Part shown: positions 3,595 through 60,201 of the stretch, in pieces
How positions within the stretch are numbered: position 1 is the stretch's first letter
How the letters are laid out: each line of letters begins with the position of its first letter
Source: a virus
Strand: one strand, 5' to 3'
Virus genome (UHGV): UHGV-0229283
Length of the DNA stretch: 64,000 bases
Program-made: the position numbers and the translations under genes
The notes under the pieces: generated by a model
Database searches by the model: none
What the model saw: only the letters and a program-made list of their open reading frames with translations
Told to the model about the DNA's origin: nothing

Positions 3595-3937
3595 CTTTCA
3601 GATATGCGATGATCCAGTCTGCCGCTTCTTCGAACCCCTCATAACCAAAGAATTTCCGGCGATTGAAATAGGTATCGTCCGTAGGGATGTTGGTTTGGAA
3701 ATTGAAGTCCCGTGTTGACCCATAGTACACAGTGATCTGGTCACTGTTACGGCATTCAGAGAATGACACTTGACGACAATTATCTTGCCCACCTGAGTAG
3801 TCCAACTTCATGATGGAGAAGCCCTGCTCACGGCAGTTCGCATAGGCCTGGAGGCCCTGGCCTAACTCTGGAGCTTTTTCAAGGACGAGCTTTAATACAC
3901 CAAACGCTTGGTACATACTTGAGTTTGTAACATCCAT
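3572..3937 (-). CDS. hypothetical protein (121 aa)
   Basis: Co-oriented ORF abutting nadR. Confidence 0.45.
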   Translation of the reverse strand: MDVTNSSMYQAFGVLKLVLEKAPELGQGLQAYANCREQGFSIMKLDYSGGQDNCRQVSFSECRNSDQITVYYGSTRDFNFQTNIPTDDTYFNRRKFFGYEGFEEAADWIIAYLKGDKDGAN

Positions 3938-9307: not shown

Positions 9308-10003
9308 TTAATGGCAATCGCTCCAATTACGACCAGTCAGGTATGCCCCTGTGATATGTACAGGACTGCCCATGATACGAGCGGCCTTCTCTACACATCT
9401 TACGACCATTTCACCTACAGGGCAATACTGGATGTGAATTTTACCATCCTCTCCAAAAATACCCTCGTAGACTGTATTGCCTTCCGCATCCTTGACTTTA
9501 TCACCGTTGTCATCTTTGACGGCCTTTCTCCATTCATGTCCGTCAAATACCCGGCCTTTTGCTTCCCATTCTTTAACGAAAGCTGTTGCCTCTTCCAGGG
9601 TGTCAAACTCCCACTTCTTCAAGTATTTCTTAGGAACCTGGAGCTGGTATTCATCATGGTAGTAAATCAGGCGACGAACGTCATCATCATACCAGCCACG
9701 TTTGATTAGTTCCCAATGAAGAAGGATACCCACCAGATCGAATAGAGATGCACCACCGTTTTGCTGGAAAGCATTCAGAAGAGAGTGCTTAGAACGGGTC
9801 CAAATCTTACGACCATCGAGACCAGGGATATAACGTTTACCCGTTGCTTCCCAGAAGTTTTCAAGCCATTCCTTACGACCTTTCAAACCAAAGTTACTAT
9901 CCCAGAAAGCATCGATTACCGCCTGTGCCTTGTCAAGGGAAATGTGAAGCATTGCTGCAATCTTAGCTGCCTGAGCACCATACATGATCCTAATGTTCGA
10001 CAT
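9308..10003 (-). CDS. DNA polymerase (family A), C-terminal fragment/exon 2, carrying motif C
   Basis: IMYGAQAAKIAAMLHIS matches the Pol I motif B tail (YGMSAFGLARQL). YYHDEYQLQV matches motif C (VHDE). Confidence 0.75.
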   Translation of the reverse strand: MSNIRIMYGAQAAKIAAMLHISLDKAQAVIDAFWDSNFGLKGRKEWLENFWEATGKRYIPGLDGRKIWTRSKHSLLNAFQQNGGASLFDLVGILLHWELIKRGWYDDDVRRLIYYHDEYQLQVPKKYLKKWEFDTLEEATAFVKEWEAKGRVFDGHEWRKAVKDDNGDKVKDAEGNTVYEGIFGEDGKIHIQYCPVGEMVVRCVEKAARIMGSPVHITGAYLTGRNWSDCH

Positions 10004-10121
10004 GGGACGCTACCACCATGCCCGTTCTCTTATGAACTGCTGCATGTTTCCATGCAGAGCAGACTATATCTTCACCCACACTTGGGGTGTCCACCGCTTC
10101 GGGCCGCTTGGCCCTACTCCG

Positions 10122-10523
10122 TTACCGGATAGTCGTTGGGATTTTACCTCTTGCCAAATACCACTCTTCACCACTACAGTAAAGATTGTTGCAAACAGCA
10201 TGTTCTACATTAGATGCACGGCATGATAACTCTATATTTTCCCAGCAATTATTCAATGTGTTTGCATCTAGGTGGTTGACCTCTTCCTCTTCAAGAAGGT
10301 CTCTACCGATCTTTGCCGCACAAATCAACCTGTGCAACAAATAGTGTTTGCCATTTTTCAAACAGATACGCTGATAAAATTTCTTTCCCTTACCTTTGTG
10401 TAGATAGGGCTTCAACTTTCTTAGTTTTCCACGATTGCTGGAGTATATATTACCTTCGTGGTCACAAAAGTATCCGTTTGATATTGGTATTTTAGCCAAG
10501 GTACTTATCTGCTGATTGTCCAT
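10122..10523 (-). CDS. HNH homing endonuclease (HNH_3 type) inside the DNA polymerase gene
   Basis: NGYFCDHEGNIYSS...KLKP......Y..I.L...GK..LHRLI is the I-HmuI-like HNH_3 signature. The ORF lies between the two polymerase fragments. Confidence 0.7.
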   Translation of the reverse strand: MDNQQISTLAKIPISNGYFCDHEGNIYSSNRGKLRKLKPYLHKGKGKKFYQRICLKNGKHYLLHRLICAAKIGRDLLEEEEVNHLDANTLNNCWENIELSCRASNVEHAVCNNLYCSGEEWYLARGKIPTTIR

Positions 10524-10671
10524 TTCATCCTCCTAAAAGGAGAAATCATACATAAATTTTTCAAACTGTCAAGCCCATCCTCGCGGATCACTTTGTAGTA
10601 TTTATGTCTTTAGGATTTCCCAGCAATTCAATGGATGCACCTTATAAATTACTTCATAAGGGGGCTATCAA

Positions 10672-12711
10672 TTAACCGTAGGTTACCCCTTTACCACCGT
10701 TACGCGTTACCAGAGTACCAGAAGCTTTGGTGTATGCCTCGGCGTTTCGTGCGTGGGCATCTCCACTTTCCATGATACGGAGGTATTCACCGCCATCGAA
10801 CTCGTAAGCACCCCAAGCAGCAATCATACCTTCGAGGTTAGAACCATCGATACCGACTTGGTAATATTCATCGGTCACACCCCAGAGACCACGCATCTCT
10901 TTACCCAACAACACCTTAGGATCTGGCTTAGGCATGTTTGCACAAATGGTGTGCTTACAACGCCCGGTGTTAGTGATACCAGAGAAACGAGCTGGAAGTT
11001 TTCCATCAATCGCCAGGCGAGGATGATTCAACAGCCCTGTATCGTTTTTATCCTCGTCAATAGGGTCGAGAACAGAACGACGGTTACGTAATGACAGCCA
11101 CTTAACAATCTGTTTAGCCAAGTGAACATCGATAACTTCAAGGTTAGGACACAGCTTGCCAAAGTTATCCTTCAACTGTGGTGAAGTCGGCAGTTGACGA
11201 GCTTTGCGTCTGAACTTCTTGAAGATCTCCTCGTAAACACGATCAGAACCATGACGATGGTCGAACTTGTTTTCCGAGATATTGAACTTTGCGTCACTAT
11301 TATTTAAGTGCTCAAGAATCAGAGATTTATACTCGGACTCTCCAAGTTCTTCGATGTACTTACGCACCAGACCATCAACCTCCGCATCATCGCGGGTCTT
11401 TTTGAACTGGTCTTTCGTCACATCTTTAACACGCCAGAGCGTTGGTTTCCATCCCGCATCGCGGATCAGGTACTTCTTGATGTCGTCCTGGTTCGAGATC
11501 TTCATCGGAACCATCAGGTCTGGCATCTTTCCAGCACGAAGATCGGCAATTGCCTTTTCCATTAGGTCTGGTGGCAATGGGACAAGGGTATTCTCTTTCT
11601 TTATCTGGCTTCTAATGAAGTCTGGCATCGCTGCCGGGTCTTCAACACCATTCTGGATACAGTATCTTTCCCCTGCTGCACTTACATCACCGTTACCTTT
11701 AAACGCCGTCTTCGGTGGACCTTTGAATTCCAGCGCTTCACGATTAACTGGATATCCCAGCTTGTATTCTAACCAATTCCACCCGTGATGGGAAATTCTT
11801 CCTGCACCATCAAAAGGATTAGCAGGGAATTTTGGCTGTTGAGACTTCGTCATCTCTTTGAGCGGGAGTTGAGGTTCTACTTCTTCCTCAATCTCTTTCA
11901 TCATTACATCAATACGGTCTCTCAGCTTTTCAGCTTCATGCTTATTGAATGGAACACCCTGAATTTCTTGCTCAATCATCAGGTAATCAGTCAACATACG
12001 GCGGCGTAGCGCGTTCTTCCAGTTGATCTGCCGCATCCCTTCCGGCTTATCTTTGTACATGAACTGCTTGTCATCAGGCCAGCGAGCACCTGTAGACTCA
12101 TCGATCAGGGATTGCCATGTCAATTCGTTGATTAAAACGTCTTCCCAGACACGGTTAACGTATTCCCACAATGGTTGGTTACGCCAGTCATCGATCTGAA
12201 CTTTCTTGTTTGCTACGCGGTAGCCCCAGGCCAACAGGCCATGAGGACCTACACGGTCTCGCTTCCCGGTTACCGGGTTAAGAACAGAGTCAGGGCAACC
12301 GTTAGGTAATGGGCGGTCAGGATAAAGCACACGGCTCATAGAGAGGGTGTCGTAGAGATTTACCTGTGTATCCCCAATCGTCCCCATGCACTTCGGGTCT
12401 TTGAACATATCATATTCAATGCCCGATAACTTCTTCCACAGACGCAGGTCATAGCCAAAAAGGTTGTGAATCGCAATGCCGCGAGGCTCCGTTTGCAACC
12501 AAGTGTACAGCTCGTCATAAGAAAGAATCCTAAGGTTAGCCTCTGTCTTGCTACGAGCGTAAGCTACTGCGCTTTCATATTCCGGGTGGTTTGGGTCAAG
12601 GAAGAGGACCCAATTGTTAACACCAAATTCTTTCAGTAGTGTGCAGTGGTACTTTGTAACTTCATCAAGCAGCCCATCTGCTTCATTATCCCCTATAAAA
12701 AGACCTCTCAT
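10672..12711 (-). CDS. DNA polymerase (family A), N-terminal fragment/exon 1 (3'-5' exo plus palm motifs A and B)
   Basis: N-terminal LFIGDNEADGL is exo motif I-like. IDGSNLEGM corresponds to motif A (DYSQIELR). The C-terminus RNGGKGVTYG corresponds to the start of motif B (RRxAKxxNFG). Confidence 0.8.
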   Translation of the reverse strand: MRGLFIGDNEADGLLDEVTKYHCTLLKEFGVNNWVLFLDPNHPEYESAVAYARSKTEANLRILSYDELYTWLQTEPRGIAIHNLFGYDLRLWKKLSGIEYDMFKDPKCMGTIGDTQVNLYDTLSMSRVLYPDRPLPNGCPDSVLNPVTGKRDRVGPHGLLAWGYRVANKKVQIDDWRNQPLWEYVNRVWEDVLINELTWQSLIDESTGARWPDDKQFMYKDKPEGMRQINWKNALRRRMLTDYLMIEQEIQGVPFNKHEAEKLRDRIDVMMKEIEEEVEPQLPLKEMTKSQQPKFPANPFDGAGRISHHGWNWLEYKLGYPVNREALEFKGPPKTAFKGNGDVSAAGERYCIQNGVEDPAAMPDFIRSQIKKENTLVPLPPDLMEKAIADLRAGKMPDLMVPMKISNQDDIKKYLIRDAGWKPTLWRVKDVTKDQFKKTRDDAEVDGLVRKYIEELGESEYKSLILEHLNNSDAKFNISENKFDHRHGSDRVYEEIFKKFRRKARQLPTSPQLKDNFGKLCPNLEVIDVHLAKQIVKWLSLRNRRSVLDPIDEDKNDTGLLNHPRLAIDGKLPARFSGITNTGRCKHTICANMPKPDPKVLLGKEMRGLWGVTDEYYQVGIDGSNLEGMIAAWGAYEFDGGEYLRIMESGDAHARNAEAYTKASGTLVTRNGGKGVTYG

Positions 12712-39235: not shown

Positions 39236-39638
39236 GTTAGGAAAGCGTGGATATCCAGCACTATACCTGAAAGGCAGTAATGCTTGGTATACCGGGTATG
39301 CCCATGACTGGAAGATGGAAGATAAGGTGGATGTTTCCGATCGTCATGAAATTCGCGAGCTGAAACTCCAGTACACTGGATTCAGTCGTGGTCGTTCTGC
39401 TGCGAATATTGAAATGGTCGATCAAGACGGGAACAAGTTCCTGATGTCAATGTCTGGGTTTGATTTGTTGATGAAAATAGTCGATGCACCAGCAAGTGTC
39501 AAAAGACCAGAAAAGCTTGGTGGGTATGATATTCTCCGCGTCACCCAGCATGGCGGCGGCGGTGTCTGGTACATTGGTTCATTTTGTCAAACAAAACAAG
39601 GCCAGAACTATTTTATTGAACCTGTGGAGGTAAGATGA
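39228..39638 (+). CDS. hypothetical protein (about 136 aa; start at MAKLGKRG)
   Basis: The ATG is preceded by GAGGAAAA. The longer track ORF starts at TTG. Confidence 0.5.
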   Translation: MAKLGKRGYPALYLKGSNAWYTGYAHDWKMEDKVDVSDRHEIRELKLQYTGFSRGRSAANIEMVDQDGNKFLMSMSGFDLLMKIVDAPASVKRPEKLGGYDILRVTQHGGGGVWYIGSFCQTKQGQNYFIEPVEVR

Positions 39639-44345: not shown

Positions 44346-44858
44346 ATGGGCTGGACTGGCATTTATTCTAATCTTAATAACAAAAAATTTGTTGAAAATT
44401 ATCTGACTGATAACCGCGTGATCGAAACTTCTGTTGTAGGCAATGAAGTTTATCAACTTGCAAGGGCGAGGGATGAAAGTCTTTACATTCGTGTAACAAT
44501 TCTTTCTCGTAAAGATGGTATGGTCTTTTATAAAGATATGGATGAAACCTGCGGCCCGTGTTATTATAACTGTCCTGAAAAATTCCTTAAGCGATCCATG
44601 CAAAAAGATGAATTTTCCGTTAATTGGCGTGCCGCTTGCCGTAAACATGCCAAATACAAAAAAGAGCAGAAAGCATTGATTGACCGGATCAAGATCCTGA
44701 AAAACGGCGATCGCGTGGAAATGGTATCCGGTCGTGTGGTTGTCTTTGAGTTCCCACATAACCGCGCCCGATTTGCTGGACGCCTGGCGGATGTTGCACC
44801 AGGTAAACAAAATTCTCTTTTTGCATGGTCTTATAAAGACGTTGCAAAGATTCTTTAA
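44346..44858 (+). CDS. hypothetical protein (170 aa)
   Basis: CGAGGTAAAATATCATG initiation region. Confidence 0.55.
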   Translation: MGWTGIYSNLNNKKFVENYLTDNRVIETSVVGNEVYQLARARDESLYIRVTILSRKDGMVFYKDMDETCGPCYYNCPEKFLKRSMQKDEFSVNWRAACRKHAKYKKEQKALIDRIKILKNGDRVEMVSGRVVVFEFPHNRARFAGRLADVAPGKQNSLFAWSYKDVAKIL

Positions 44859-51730: not shown

Positions 51731-51994
51731 ATGACAAACATGATTTACACTGTAAGCAAAACAAGCCTTTTACGCGCTACCCTGCTGGCTTGCCTTATTG
51801 CTTTAGTGTCTAATACGTGTTTTAACTGGCTGGCTTGCCTGGTAACGACGGAAACAATGGCGCAAGGGTTTAACACCATGATCGACGTTTTACAATTGAC
51901 GTTTTACACTCTGATTAAACTTAATCGCTTTAATCGTTTAGACCGTTATGATCTCCCTTTCTTGATCGCTGGCCTGCTGGCTATCGCGCTGTAA
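51731..51994 (+). CDS. small membrane protein (87 aa, 2-3 TM)
   Basis: LLRATLLACLIALVSNTCF and LPFLIAGLLAIAL are hydrophobic segments. Confidence 0.45.
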   Translation: MTNMIYTVSKTSLLRATLLACLIALVSNTCFNWLACLVTTETMAQGFNTMIDVLQLTFYTLIKLNRFNRLDRYDLPFLIAGLLAIAL

Positions 51995-52019: not shown

Positions 52020-52048
52020 GCCGGGCAACTCCCGGCTTTTGTGTTTTT
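52020..52048 (+). terminator. rho-independent terminator ending the small-gene cluster
   Basis: GCCGGGCAACTCCCGGC followed by TTTTGTGTTTTT. Confidence 0.5.
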
Positions 52049-52407
52049 ATATGTTAGGTTTTATCAATCAATAATCAAAAAGTGATAGGTGACTAAAACC
52101 TGCATAATCGAGATCTCCAGGCGGTAACCCACTAGCCAGGGTAAGAGATAAAGCCTCTCAGAATGGCGCATATTGCGCTTAAAAGGGTATGGCCCTACCT
52201 AACAACCCCAACAATTAATAACGCATGTTATTAACTGAATAAAACATGCATTTTTAAGCATTATGTATGCATAGTGTGAGAATCACTCTCAAATGATAAC
52301 TTTTATCATCTAACCTATTGTGTGAACTGGTTTTATTGAGCATAAAAATAAAATCTTGTCAAATAAAAATCGTTCGCGTAATCGTGGGGAGTGGCGCGAG
52401 CGTAGCG

Positions 52408-52613
52408 AGCGACACAATAACACTAGGGTAACTCAAATGCGAACAAATCGCATTCTCGTTCGCGTTATCGTGGCTCGTAGACGCTACGATCAAGGACGAA
52501 ATTATTACAGTGTATTATCATTACATCCGTAATGATTAGCAATGGAACTTTATCACATCGCCACGATAACACCGATCAACTATCGTTGATCGCCCTAGTG
52601 TTATTGTGTCGCT
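52408..52613. repeat. 21 bp perfect inverted repeat pair (AGCGACACAATAACACTAGGG / CCCTAGTGTTATTGTGTCGCT) flanking a 164 bp palindrome-rich core
   Basis: The left arm is 52408..52428 and the right arm is 52593..52613. The core contains internal palindromes (GATCAACTATCGTTGATC, CATTACATCCGTAATG, GCGAACAAATCGCATTCTCGTTCGC). Direct and inverted GCGTWATCGTGG copies lie around it. Confidence 0.6.
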
Positions 52614-53739
52614 GGTGATGGTAACACCCCGTTATTATTATGTGATTAAATGAAATTTAATGGTTGACAAATAGCAATAAATCACTTGCCAATGTGGGCC
52701 TATGGCCTATGGAAAGGCCTGTTTTTGAGCATGGAAGAAGTGTAAACTGTCAAGTGTTTTTATTATCGAAAATTCCTATCAATGCCTTGCGTGGCAATAA
52801 AGAAAATAGTTACTTATTGTAACTATTTCAATGCTTTAGCATTGCCGGGTATCCGGTCCGTAACGGGCTTATGTGAGAATAGTTATCATTGGGGAAATGC
52901 TCAAAGTATAGCTGTGTGTTAAACACGATTCTCTCTCCTTGTCAAGCTTTTATTTATAAATTTACAAAATATTTATATTTGCGGAATGATTCTCATTTCG
53001 AAATTGAATTCGAAATCGAAATAATAATGATTCTCATTCGTCATCTCATTCACAAAACAACCCTAAAACATGAATAATCACACATGAAACTATCACCACA
53101 GTAACAGTCACACCATGTAATGACCTGAAGCGGCTGGCCTATGCGTCACACTGGTAACATTGGGGCATTATTAGCTTGCTATGTGTTGTTGGTCAGTGCG
53201 TATAACGTGTTTTATGTTAAATGGTGTAATTCATATAAATATAAGCTTGTCAATAGCAAATCGTGCTCTAAGCTGGCAAACCATATGCTTGCTATATGTC
53301 ACATTTGATTATTATTAGTTTCGGCAAGTAACTATCATGCCTGAAGAGGCCCCGAGGAACCGGGAACCGGATCGACCTTGCCCATGATATTTTGTAAAGA
53401 TCCGTAAAAATATTTGACGCCCGGAGCTGTCCGTCTAGCACCGCAGATGGTGAGAACAGGATATTTTTCGGCAAGTGATATTTTCGGCAGGGGGCCTGTT
53501 TTGATTTCCCCACGGGGGAAGGGGTGGTTATACGGGGAAAACAGGGGCCTGTTTACGGTATCGACATATCGGGGAGTCCCTTCAGATTGTGTGTTAATGA
53601 AATGAGTACGTAGTACAATGAGAATCATTCTCATTTACAGACAACCGGGCAGGTCCGGTGATTGTTTCGTGCAGCCTCAGCACCTGTTGCTGTGTGCAGG
53701 ATAACAGGGTTGCCTATTCAGGTCAACCCCTTCGTGCGG

Positions 53740-59507: not shown

Positions 59508-59797
59508 AATTAGAAGATAGTGGTATGCCTGATCGTAACGAGCCAGACCATAAGGTTTGTGTTGATTCCATCTGCCTGCTGTATGGATTCTCGGAGGATA
59601 ATATCCTTAATGGAAAACGCTGTCTTGTGCTGGAGAAGACCATCCTCGGTGTAAATGGATATTACCCTCGTCACGAATCTTGGTTTCTTTGCCACGTTGA
59701 TGGACTTCCATATCTGCATGATATCCGAGTTGATCACTTGATGCACTTGGATGATTCAGATCATCTCGTGATAGAAAAGCTATCCAAAGGTCAATAA
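59501..59797 (+). CDS. hypothetical protein (98 aa)
   Basis: Ends at a bidirectional terminator. Confidence 0.4.
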   Translation: MLELEDSGMPDRNEPDHKVCVDSICLLYGFSEDNILNGKRCLVLEKTILGVNGYYPRHESWFLCHVDGLPYLHDIRVDHLMHLDDSDHLVIEKLSKGQ

Positions 59798-59824
59798 AAA
59801 AAAACCCGGCAATCGCCGGTTTTT
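59792..59824. terminator. bidirectional rho-independent terminator (A9, CCGGCAATCGCCGG, T10)
   Basis: A hairpin flanked by an A run and a T run, between convergent genes. Confidence 0.65.
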
Positions 59825-59826
59825 TT

Positions 59827-60201
59827 TTATACATCTTTCAACCATTCATTCCTTTCGGTATAAATCATACGGTTTTTCTTCTTCCTGTTGAGGGCAGCAG
59901 GTATCACCTGAATATTATCACCACAGTTAAGGCCGGACACTTTAGTTGCCCTGAGGGGAAGCATGTGGTCTGGTTCCCACTTTATTCCAGTATCTTCACA
60001 GCGAACAGAACACAAGTGGTCAGCCTCATCTCTGACAAACTCATCCCACTCACTATGGAGGGTAGCACGTTTCTCTGCTTCAATACGAGCAAGACGAATA
60101 CGAAGTTGTTCTGCTTTACCTTCCGGTGTGGAACGCCGCTGACGATCAATCTCACGACGACGGGCGGCATACTGACGATAATACTCCTGACGATCTCTCA
60201 T
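59827..60201 (-). CDS. HNH endonuclease (124 aa)
   Basis: EPDHMLPL...GLNCGDNIQVIPAALNRKK is an HNH motif. Confidence 0.65.
   Translation of the reverse strand: MRDRQEYYRQYAARRREIDRQRRSTPEGKAEQLRIRLARIEAEKRATLHSEWDEFVRDEADHLCSVRCEDTGIKWEPDHMLPLRATKVSGLNCGDNIQVIPAALNRKKKNRMIYTERNEWLKDV

Follow-up and report, generated by a model that had tools for sequence, protein, structure and literature searches.

Phages with short terminal repeats carry one repeat per junction in their concatemers and duplicate it before or during packaging, and in T7-type phages, in which the repeat must be duplicated during concatemer processing, a hairpin form of the DNA has been seen (PMC4281155, citing Chung & Hinkle 1990 and Molineux 2006). 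Models for T7 combine nicking with strand-displacement or primase-initiated synthesis (PMC4281155). For rV5-like phages, a gp4-like primase-helicase of the T7 type has been reported, together with a family A polymerase (PMC3606486). The DNA analysed here, 64,000 nucleotides of virus genome UHGV-0229283 (the window), comes from such a phage, a Klebsiella myovirus of the genus Mydovirus (Vequintavirinae, rV5-like), which shows 98% identity to vB_KpnM_BIS47 across the region described below. This region contains a non-coding, single-copy element of about 245 nt, in which a perfect 21-bp inverted repeat closes a multi-helix fold next to a direct terminal repeat. We propose, with a probability of roughly 45%, that the element is a cis-acting DNA fold-back signal for terminal-repeat duplication, priming or packaging. 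Such a role in end processing is suggested because the T7-type models of repeat duplication and the hairpin form offer a precedent.

In T7 and T3 a hairpin end lies just left of the terminal repeat, with the promoter phiOR nearby. The best inverted repeat near the T7 right end is found at 39568–39608, 170 bp left of the terminal repeat, and this palindrome is probably the hairpin end of Chung, Nardone & Hinkle 1990. The locus described here resembles the T7/T3 concatemer junction in its linear genome with short direct terminal repeats, in an inverted repeat placed a few hundred bp inside the right-end repeat, in the need to duplicate the repeat before packaging and, probably, in a T7-type replisome. 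The last likeness is drawn through the rV5 report and a weak DNA_pol_A match of a split open reading frame (ORF) in the window (20.5 bits, below the Pfam cut-off of 34.3). Unlike the T7 structure, which is an imperfect 19-nt palindrome with a 3-nt loop, the Mydovirus element has perfect 21-nt arms, a nested four-way fold in the 164 nt between them and invariant sequence blocks. The two share no sequence similarity, and for T7, too, the role of the hairpin is a model only.

A second comparison is with single-strand initiation signals, such as the complementary-strand origins of G4 and phiX174, primosome assembly sites, plasmid single-strand origins and Frpo of the F plasmid. These are multi-hairpin folds of 70–300 nt in single-stranded DNA, which recruit priming enzymes. 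They are active only on unwound DNA, their stems are kept by compensatory change and they are strand-specific. They belong to single-stranded DNA phages and to rolling-circle or conjugative plasmids, whereas here both strands fold equally and the carrier is a 145-kb double-stranded DNA myovirus.

The arms of the inverted repeat, AGCGACACAATAACACTAGGG (52408–52428) and CCCTAGTGTTATTGTGTCGCT (52593–52613), are 100% complementary and 164 nt apart, exactly as placed in a preliminary description of this DNA. The three further palindromes that it reported in the core are also present (52436–52454, 52517–52536 and 52573–52592), and there is an extra 5-bp palindrome at 52476–52488. Its view that the repeat is beyond chance holds: AGCGACACAATAACACTAGGG is unique in the window with up to three mismatches allowed, shuffles predict 0 matches, and the 21-nt repeat is the longest and the sole perfect local inverted repeat in the 64 kb. 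Direct and inverted copies of GCGTWATCGTGG had been described as lying around the core. Copies in both orientations do exist, at 52376 (+), 52462 (+) and 52561 (−, one mismatch), where 0.22 are expected by chance, but only the first lies outside the arms. The other two sit within the core and pair together as an 11-bp stem. The direct repeat extends to 18 nt, TCGTTCGCGTWATCGTGG, with starts at 52370 and 52456, 86 bp apart. The folding energy of a 260-nt stretch is far below that of shuffles (z of −9.8 for + RNA, −10.4 for − RNA and −9.2 for + DNA).

Beyond what had been described, the inverted repeat closes a larger fold, a four-way junction composed of P1, P2, P5 (with P3) and P4, which is preceded by a hairpin, P0. 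The parts are listed below; pair counts refer to an alignment of 23 sequences introduced further on.

52369–52613: whole structured element (~245 nt), P0 plus the four-way junction closed by the 21-bp repeat, recovered by covariance model R1
52370–52387: direct repeat, copy 1, TCGTTCGCGTAATCGTGG
52371–52378 and 52395–52402: P0 hairpin, CGTTCGCG / CGCGAGCG, with an invariant T.G pair on the + strand; 1 of 8 pairs changes on both sides
52408–52428: P1, 5′ arm; 12 of 21 pairs change on both sides
52429–52435: joiner TAACTCA from P1 to P2, near-invariant in all genera
52436–52442 and 52448–52454: P2 hairpin, 7 bp; 5 of 7 pairs change on both sides
between P2 and P5: joiner CTCGTTCGC
52456–52473: direct repeat, copy 2, TCGTTCGCGTTATCGTGG, invariant in all homologues
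52464–52474 and 52560–52570: P5, 11 bp, GTTATCGTGGC / GCCACGATAAC; all 11 pairs invariant, none changing on both sides
52475–52559: variable domain within P5, always with at least one perfect hairpin, different in sequence and length among phages
52517–52524 and 52529–52536: P3 hairpin of the window's variable domain
between P5 and P4: joiner AC
52573–52580 and 52585–52592: P4 hairpin, 8 bp, abutting the P1 3′ arm; 3 of 8 pairs change on both sides
52593–52613: P1, 3′ arm, exact reverse complement of the 5′ arm

The 64 phage records with a homologous stretch belong to Mydovirus, Seunavirus (PVP-SE1, 4MG, GAP31) and Henunavirus (Erwinia phages); each genome has one such stretch, and its locus is always the same. 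Covariance model R1 likewise recovers a single copy per genome, with scores of 114–299 bits at 27 loci. An alignment-free scan detects an exact complementary arm core of 17–22 nt at all 30 of the 30 loci in which both arms could be located. The arms at these loci fall into at least nine distinct sequences (the Erwinia phages have GCCACCTATAAAAGCAAGTAG or AGCCACCTATAAACGCTGATAG in place of the window's AGCGACACAATAACACTAGGG), and the spacer between them varies from 152 to 255 nt. In a MAFFT alignment of 14 sequences, 98.3% of the cells are paired, compared to 21–51% in slid controls; double-sided changes affect nine pairs (29 cells), and one-sided changes are absent. A covariance-model alignment of 23 sequences gives 98.5% paired cells (slid controls, 21–54%), with 21 of 55 pairs (90 cells) changing on both sides and only three cells changing on one side. 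None of 500 shuffles matches the observed paired fraction, the number of covarying pairs, the number of covarying cells or the covariation score. The covariance-model alignment is fitted to the structure, and it agrees with both the arm scan and the MAFFT result, which are independent of structure. In P0, only the outer pair varies (C-G, T.G or T-A) and all other pairs are invariant, so covariation says little for this hairpin. The variable domain retains a perfect hairpin by different means in different phages, for example ATCATTAC/GTAATGAT versus ATGATTAC/GTAATCAT. Such covariation proves intrastrand pairing and does not tell the type of molecule in which the pairing occurs.

Between Mydovirus and Seunavirus, the stretch 52150–53300 aligns almost completely with a peak identity of 88–93% inside the element, whereas the flanking small genes are scarcely alignable. 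In the Erwinia phages, the element is nearly the sole island of nucleotide conservation. It is thus the best-conserved non-coding stretch between the genera and exceeds the neighbouring genes in this respect. This pattern bears on whether the clustered palindromes could lack a function and owe their perfection to template-switch (quasipalindrome) correction in an end region prone to recombination. The changes in the stems are almost all clean doubles without intermediates and the region gains and loses hairpin cassettes, as such correction would have it. However, the unpaired joiners and the P5 strands are invariant in three genera whose flanking protein genes have diverged past nucleotide recognition. 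Purifying selection must therefore act on the sequence, and a cluster without function is very improbable.

Two ORFs overlap the element in the window (52356–52532 on the + strand and 52359–52493 on the − strand), and small hypothetical coding sequences have been drawn over it in DP (UYA58284), KPP-1 (KPP_12131) and Mydo (CPT_Mydo_079). A protein-coding role was considered and rejected, since insertions and deletions of 1, 2, 10, 52 and 56 nt in the homologues break the frame; the region is non-coding and the annotated coding sequences are almost certainly spurious. Three further records (OY978796, OY757067 and OY979426) mislabel the non-coding region as terminase large subunit, major head protein and tail fiber protein. 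Elsewhere in public records it is labelled "hypothetical protein" or left unannotated.

Insertions into the element are found only in places where a fold would tolerate them, and the inserts themselves consist of perfect hairpins of small size. Mydo (about 3701–3753 of locus L002), NDO71, SalP219 and NINP13076 carry, exactly in the P2 loop, a 53-nt cassette of three perfect mini-hairpins; it is common to different genera and present in a single copy per genome. In Hena1, about 24 nt inserted in the P4 loop form an extra hairpin, and inserts of 20–52 nt occupy the variable domain of VIK251, KE23 and LNA4. A hairpin-rich cassette of 79 nt follows ...GTGTC in the P1 3′ arm of PVP-SE1 (about 1772–1864 of locus L010), SSE121, GEC_vB_MG, RUS_R7, SEW_6S and AV124. 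It is flanked by a 13-bp duplication of the arm, GTGTTATWGTGTC, which creates two alternative 3′ arms, and is shared by Seunavirus and a Mydovirus-like E. coli phage as a single copy restricted to this locus.

Tolerance of 20–79-nt hairpin insertions in loops and in the variable domain is a property of a fold rather than of a dimeric protein site on duplex DNA. The alternative that the element is an array of protein-binding sites on duplex DNA, i.e. an iteron-type origin or a pac site of the terminase small subunit with incidental hairpins, deserves attention for other reasons. The 12-mer GYGTWATYGTGK has five related copies in alternating orientation, at 52376 (+), 52412 (−), 52462 (+), 52561 (−) and 52598 (+). 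One copy of the 18-nt direct repeat (52456–52474) never varies, nor does its inverted partner. An AT-rich stretch (52340–52369) lies just upstream, and the element adjoins the packaging cut sites. In addition, packaging of plasmids by T7 reportedly requires an origin together with the concatemer junction (Chung & Hinkle 1990, cited in PMC4281155). However, P1, P2, P3 and P4 change freely in sequence and yet stay complementary, whereas positions that no protein contacts would drift independently in each arm. Dimer sites would not survive the 53-nt and ~24-nt insertions, which fall in the middle of the P2 and P4 palindromes. No initiator gene is adjacent, and the neighbouring ORFs match no DNA-binding family in Pfam or PHROGs. 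The iteron-like features amount to two 18-nt direct copies plus inverted or degenerate 12-mers and form no regular tandem array, where an iteron-type origin would have at least three direct repeats of 17–22 bp at even spacing. Established packaging sites (lambda cosB, P1 pac and SPP1 pac) are similar in being non-coding and single-copy, in lying beside the packaging cut and in carrying short repeated motifs in both orientations, but they act as duplexes at fixed spacing, whereas the dominant signal here is intrastrand pairing and the distance to the repeat is variable. Taken together, a duplex-binding array is an unlikely account of the element. By skew analysis, the authors of the rV5 report could not place a replication origin (PMC3606486).

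The preliminary description offered three options: a miniature inverted-repeat transposable element (MITE), a site of replication or packaging that forms a hairpin, or a long RNA stem. The last two survive, and the stem is backed by compensatory changes; the first is refuted. The locus does share with MITEs a short non-coding core bounded by perfect, terminal-looking inverted repeats, and some relatives have acquired small hairpin cassettes within the element, one of them with the 13-bp flanking duplication. Further copies of the 21-mer would have pointed to a MITE, but it is unique in the window and each genome has one copy of the element, with no target-site duplication (direct repeat of 2–10 bp) at the arm boundaries. 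The element occupies the same orthologous locus in all 64 matching records of three genera without presence/absence polymorphism and, unlike a MITE, it shows deep conservation and covarying internal helices. The chance that the arms are terminal inverted repeats of a transposable element is negligible. The inserted cassettes were also considered as a MITE family in their own right and rejected as such, given that the 79-nt and the 53-nt cassette are both single-copy in the genomes that have them and are restricted to this locus.

The physical ends of the genome were located by homology. KPP-1 has 514-bp direct terminal repeats, established from double read coverage and PhageTerm (PMC9862379). 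These map to 52922–53435 of the window, as does the repeat_region annotated in DP. In the Erwinia phage Hena1, an annotated 519-bp terminal repeat starts at the homologous base. Motifs at the repeat boundaries are kept in three genera (left, ...TG(C/T)TA|AACAC...; right, ...TGTCCGTC|). As the repeats of KPP-1, DP and Hena1 are homologous, the ends of the window's genome are placed at 52922 (left) and 53435 (right). The repeat begins 308 bp rightward of the element, which had not been noticed before. Across three genera, including Hena1, this distance ranges from 217 to 403 bp and the element is on the left. This position near the right end of the genome puts the element within the concatemer junction. 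The surrounding features are as follows.

52020–52036, both strands: predicted bidirectional intrinsic terminator closing the rightward gene cluster, also annotated in phage Mydo
52150–52368: conserved non-coding block upstream of the element, 72–90% identical to Seunavirus, with small palindromes such as TTAATAACGCATGTTATTAA
52336–52343 and 52725–52732: motif TTGAGCAT, also inverted as ATGCTCAA at 52897–52904; invariant across genera
52357–52363 (TGTCAAA), 52748–52754 (TGTCAAG) and 52940–52946: motif TGTCAA(A/G), invariant across genera
52614–52921: length-variable spacer from the element to the repeat, with invariant short motifs separated by covarying small hairpins
52664–52671: motif TTGACAAA, invariant across genera
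52704–52719, + strand: terminator-like hairpin with a T-run to 52725, 91 nt downstream of the element, in the window and SPLA5a
52922–53435: direct terminal repeat, 514 bp, by homology to the KPP-1 and DP repeats (97% identity)

The element is situated in a gene-free zone of ~1.3 kb between converging gene clusters, the rightward one ending at 51994 and the leftward one near 53335. The recurring motifs may be protein-binding or promoter elements, and the end region as a whole looks, from its sequence, like a cis-acting control region of which the element is the most constrained part. The spacer contains an optional cassette of ~68 nt with three or four small hairpins (about 52798–52866), which resembles the cassettes inserted in the element. 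It is present in the window, KB57 and PVP-SE1 and missing from DP, VIK251, EspYZU15, SPLA5a, 4MG, GAP31, EC152 and FENT2. A sigma-70-like promoter on the − strand (52916–52945) spans the left boundary of the repeat, with its −35 TTGACA inside the repeat and its −10 just outside. It is directed at the element and scores 10/12 in 4MG (2020–1991 of locus L009), being weaker in the window (TAACAC); the predicted terminase cut lies between the −10 and the spacer of this promoter. Within the terminal repeat, two copies of AATGATTCTCATT (52985 and 53026) surround a tandem of TTCGAAATTGAA / TTCGAAATCGAA (52997 and 53009), and the repeats at 52985–53038 together make up a 25-nt imperfect palindrome.

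How such an element might act can be outlined from the T7 precedent. Once the DNA is opened by a nick, replication or strand displacement, either strand would fold back into the compact four-way junction, with the nested P2, P5/P3 and P4 hairpins shortening the 164-nt spacer so that the 21-nt arms meet. During processing of the concatemer junction, this would provide a paired 3′ end, or a site of priming or assembly, to the left of the single terminal repeat, and the repeat would be copied before terminase cuts at 52921/52922 and 53435/53436. For example, the − strand could be nicked at the left boundary of the element and its 3′ end fold onto the complementary arm. The folded end would then prime rightward synthesis through the spacer and the repeat to give a second repeat copy, while the displaced old + strand, which would fold equally well, could recruit priming. 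The invariant blocks TCGTTCGCGTTATCGTGGC, GCCACGATAAC, TAACTCA and GCGAGCGTAGCGAGC would serve as recognition sites for a phage protein (a nickase, terminase or primase-helicase).

We infer that the element acts as DNA and participates in repeat duplication or packaging. Several properties favour DNA. Pairs of the G.U type make up only 3 of 81 pair types, and where pairs change, almost always both bases do so cleanly, in many cases by transversion. The two strands do not differ consistently in folding energy: the + strand is more stable in 8 of 23 sequences with RNA parameters and in 6 of 23 with DNA parameters, with mean differences of less than 2 kcal/mol. When the window, 4MG, Hena1 and SPLA5a are compared, they share no sigma-70 promoter or intrinsic terminator at an equivalent position, and the counts of such sites are at the level of shuffles. 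In the region, no Rfam family, including phage pRNA, GOLLD, ROOL and group I/II introns, reaches its gathering score, and matches at E-values up to 10 are chance-level snoRNA and CRISPR-repeat matches outside the element. Finally, the element keeps its position beside the physical end of the genome.

The same observations have to be set against the idea that the four-way junction is the fold of a transcript, i.e. that the locus is a gene for a structured non-coding RNA of ~250–360 nt. Such an RNA could be made from the + strand, ending at the hairpin and T-run of 52704–52725, or from the − strand, starting at the promoter-like site over the repeat boundary, and it might serve regulation, anti-defence or perhaps packaging. 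An RNA would be in keeping with a strongly covarying multi-helix junction whose single-stranded joiners are near-invariant and whose loops tolerate hairpin expansions, and also, on the + strand, with the invariant U.G pair of P0 and the series C-G, U.G and U-A at its outer pair. Transcription signals would come from the terminator-like hairpin of the + strand, which follows the element after 91 nt in the window and SPLA5a, and from the − strand TTGACA-18-TAGCAT, which scores 10/12 in 4MG and faces the element. Nevertheless, these signals do not recur among the four phages, G.U pairs are as rare as stated, neither strand folds better and nothing in Rfam matches. In addition, a perfect 21-bp RNA helix would be a substrate of RNase III, and the element is located where transcription units converge, behind a strong bidirectional terminator. 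The RNA gene is therefore a less probable explanation, though the main alternative, and DNA is more likely than RNA to be the acting molecule. The element and phi29 pRNA are both structured nucleic acids encoded near a phage genome end, but phi29 has protein-primed unit-length genomes, whereas here there are terminal repeats, terminase cutting and no Rfam match.

Several points weigh against a DNA fold-back signal at the genome end. The distance between the element and the repeat is not fixed (217–403 bp), which makes a measuring mechanism unlikely; priming or strand displacement fits this variation better than a mechanism that measures from pac to cut. Simple cruciform extrusion from an intact duplex is disfavoured by the spacer of 152–255 nt, so a single-stranded stage would be needed. 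The invariant T.G pair of P0 is an A.C mismatch on the opposite strand, which hints weakly that the + strand is the one that matters. RNAs, too, typically have multi-helix junctions whose single-stranded joiners are conserved. The perfection of the arms could result in part from template-switch correction rather than from selection on each pair. Lastly, in segments of the Vequintavirus phages FV3 and KP2025, anchored on the 87-residue last ORF described below, there is no model match better than E = 0.6 and no long inverted repeat, with the limit that the repeat positions of these phages are not known and the anchor is non-terminal there. The segments suggest, without being conclusive, that some relatives with terminal repeats lack the element.

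IMG/VR holds nine loci, mainly of the same isolates. In a model search of 200 loci obtained from 15-/16-mer scans (80 from bacterial genomes and 120 from metagenomes; L238–L277 were left out), no true copy was found among the 80 bacterial loci and one truncated homologue among the 120 metagenomic ones, the scans having yielded chance matches; this, too, speaks against a MITE. Some records end within the element, apparently because the inverted repeat disturbs assembly. The SalP219 record (L012/L036) has an overlap of ~127 nt between its start and its end, which falls in the right arm, and the metagenome contig L124 stops inside the element. The SalP219 end at ...GTGTC was considered as a physical end or nick site and rejected, as it is explained by the ~127-nt assembly overlap of the record's start and end.

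In the literature searched, neither an account of this element nor a transcriptome or origin mapping of these phages was found. There is a small chance that the element belongs to a class of structured nucleic acids not described before, with which rV5-like phages mark their genome end, either as a self-priming four-way DNA fold-back that would solve the problem of duplicating the terminal repeat or as an end-region RNA in packaging or end recognition. If it is a DNA fold-back signal as proposed, it would be a new form of the cis-acting signal known at the concatemer junction of T7; if it is an end RNA, it would be functionally comparable to phi29 pRNA and unrelated to it. In either case, it would provide the first sequence-defined and genetically testable handle on end processing with short direct terminal repeats outside the T7 group. 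As it stands, the element is a candidate cis signal that is sharply delimited, supported by covariation and located beside the cut sites, in a group of phages of which many have been isolated for use in therapy against Klebsiella, Salmonella, Cronobacter and Erwinia. In genome engineering and rebooting, the element and the true ends need to be kept intact, and the inverted repeats break assemblies at this place.

The last ORF before the end region (51731–51994, +) encodes 87 residues and belongs to PHROG 17242 (function unknown). It is kept across the Vequintavirinae; in Vequintavirus proper, it has paralogues and is non-terminal. A role of the element as a terminator or insulator was considered and rejected: a long-range stem of 21 bp that encloses 164 nt does not make a terminator, and 52020–52036 already provides a bidirectional one.

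Only two other long local inverted repeats are found in the window. The one at 59786–59838 is a 21-nt hairpin of A/T runs with an 11-nt loop, probably a bidirectional terminator. The other, at 44596–44828, is a pair of 20-nt segments, 193 nt apart and 85% complementary. The window also contains a group I intron (10040–10683, −; Rfam RF00028, 66 bits) that carries an ORF for an HNH endonuclease (Pfam HNH_3). The ORFs at this place are 10672–12711, 10122–10523 and 9308–10003, all on the − strand, and the downstream part of the gene split by the intron gives the weak match to family A DNA polymerases.

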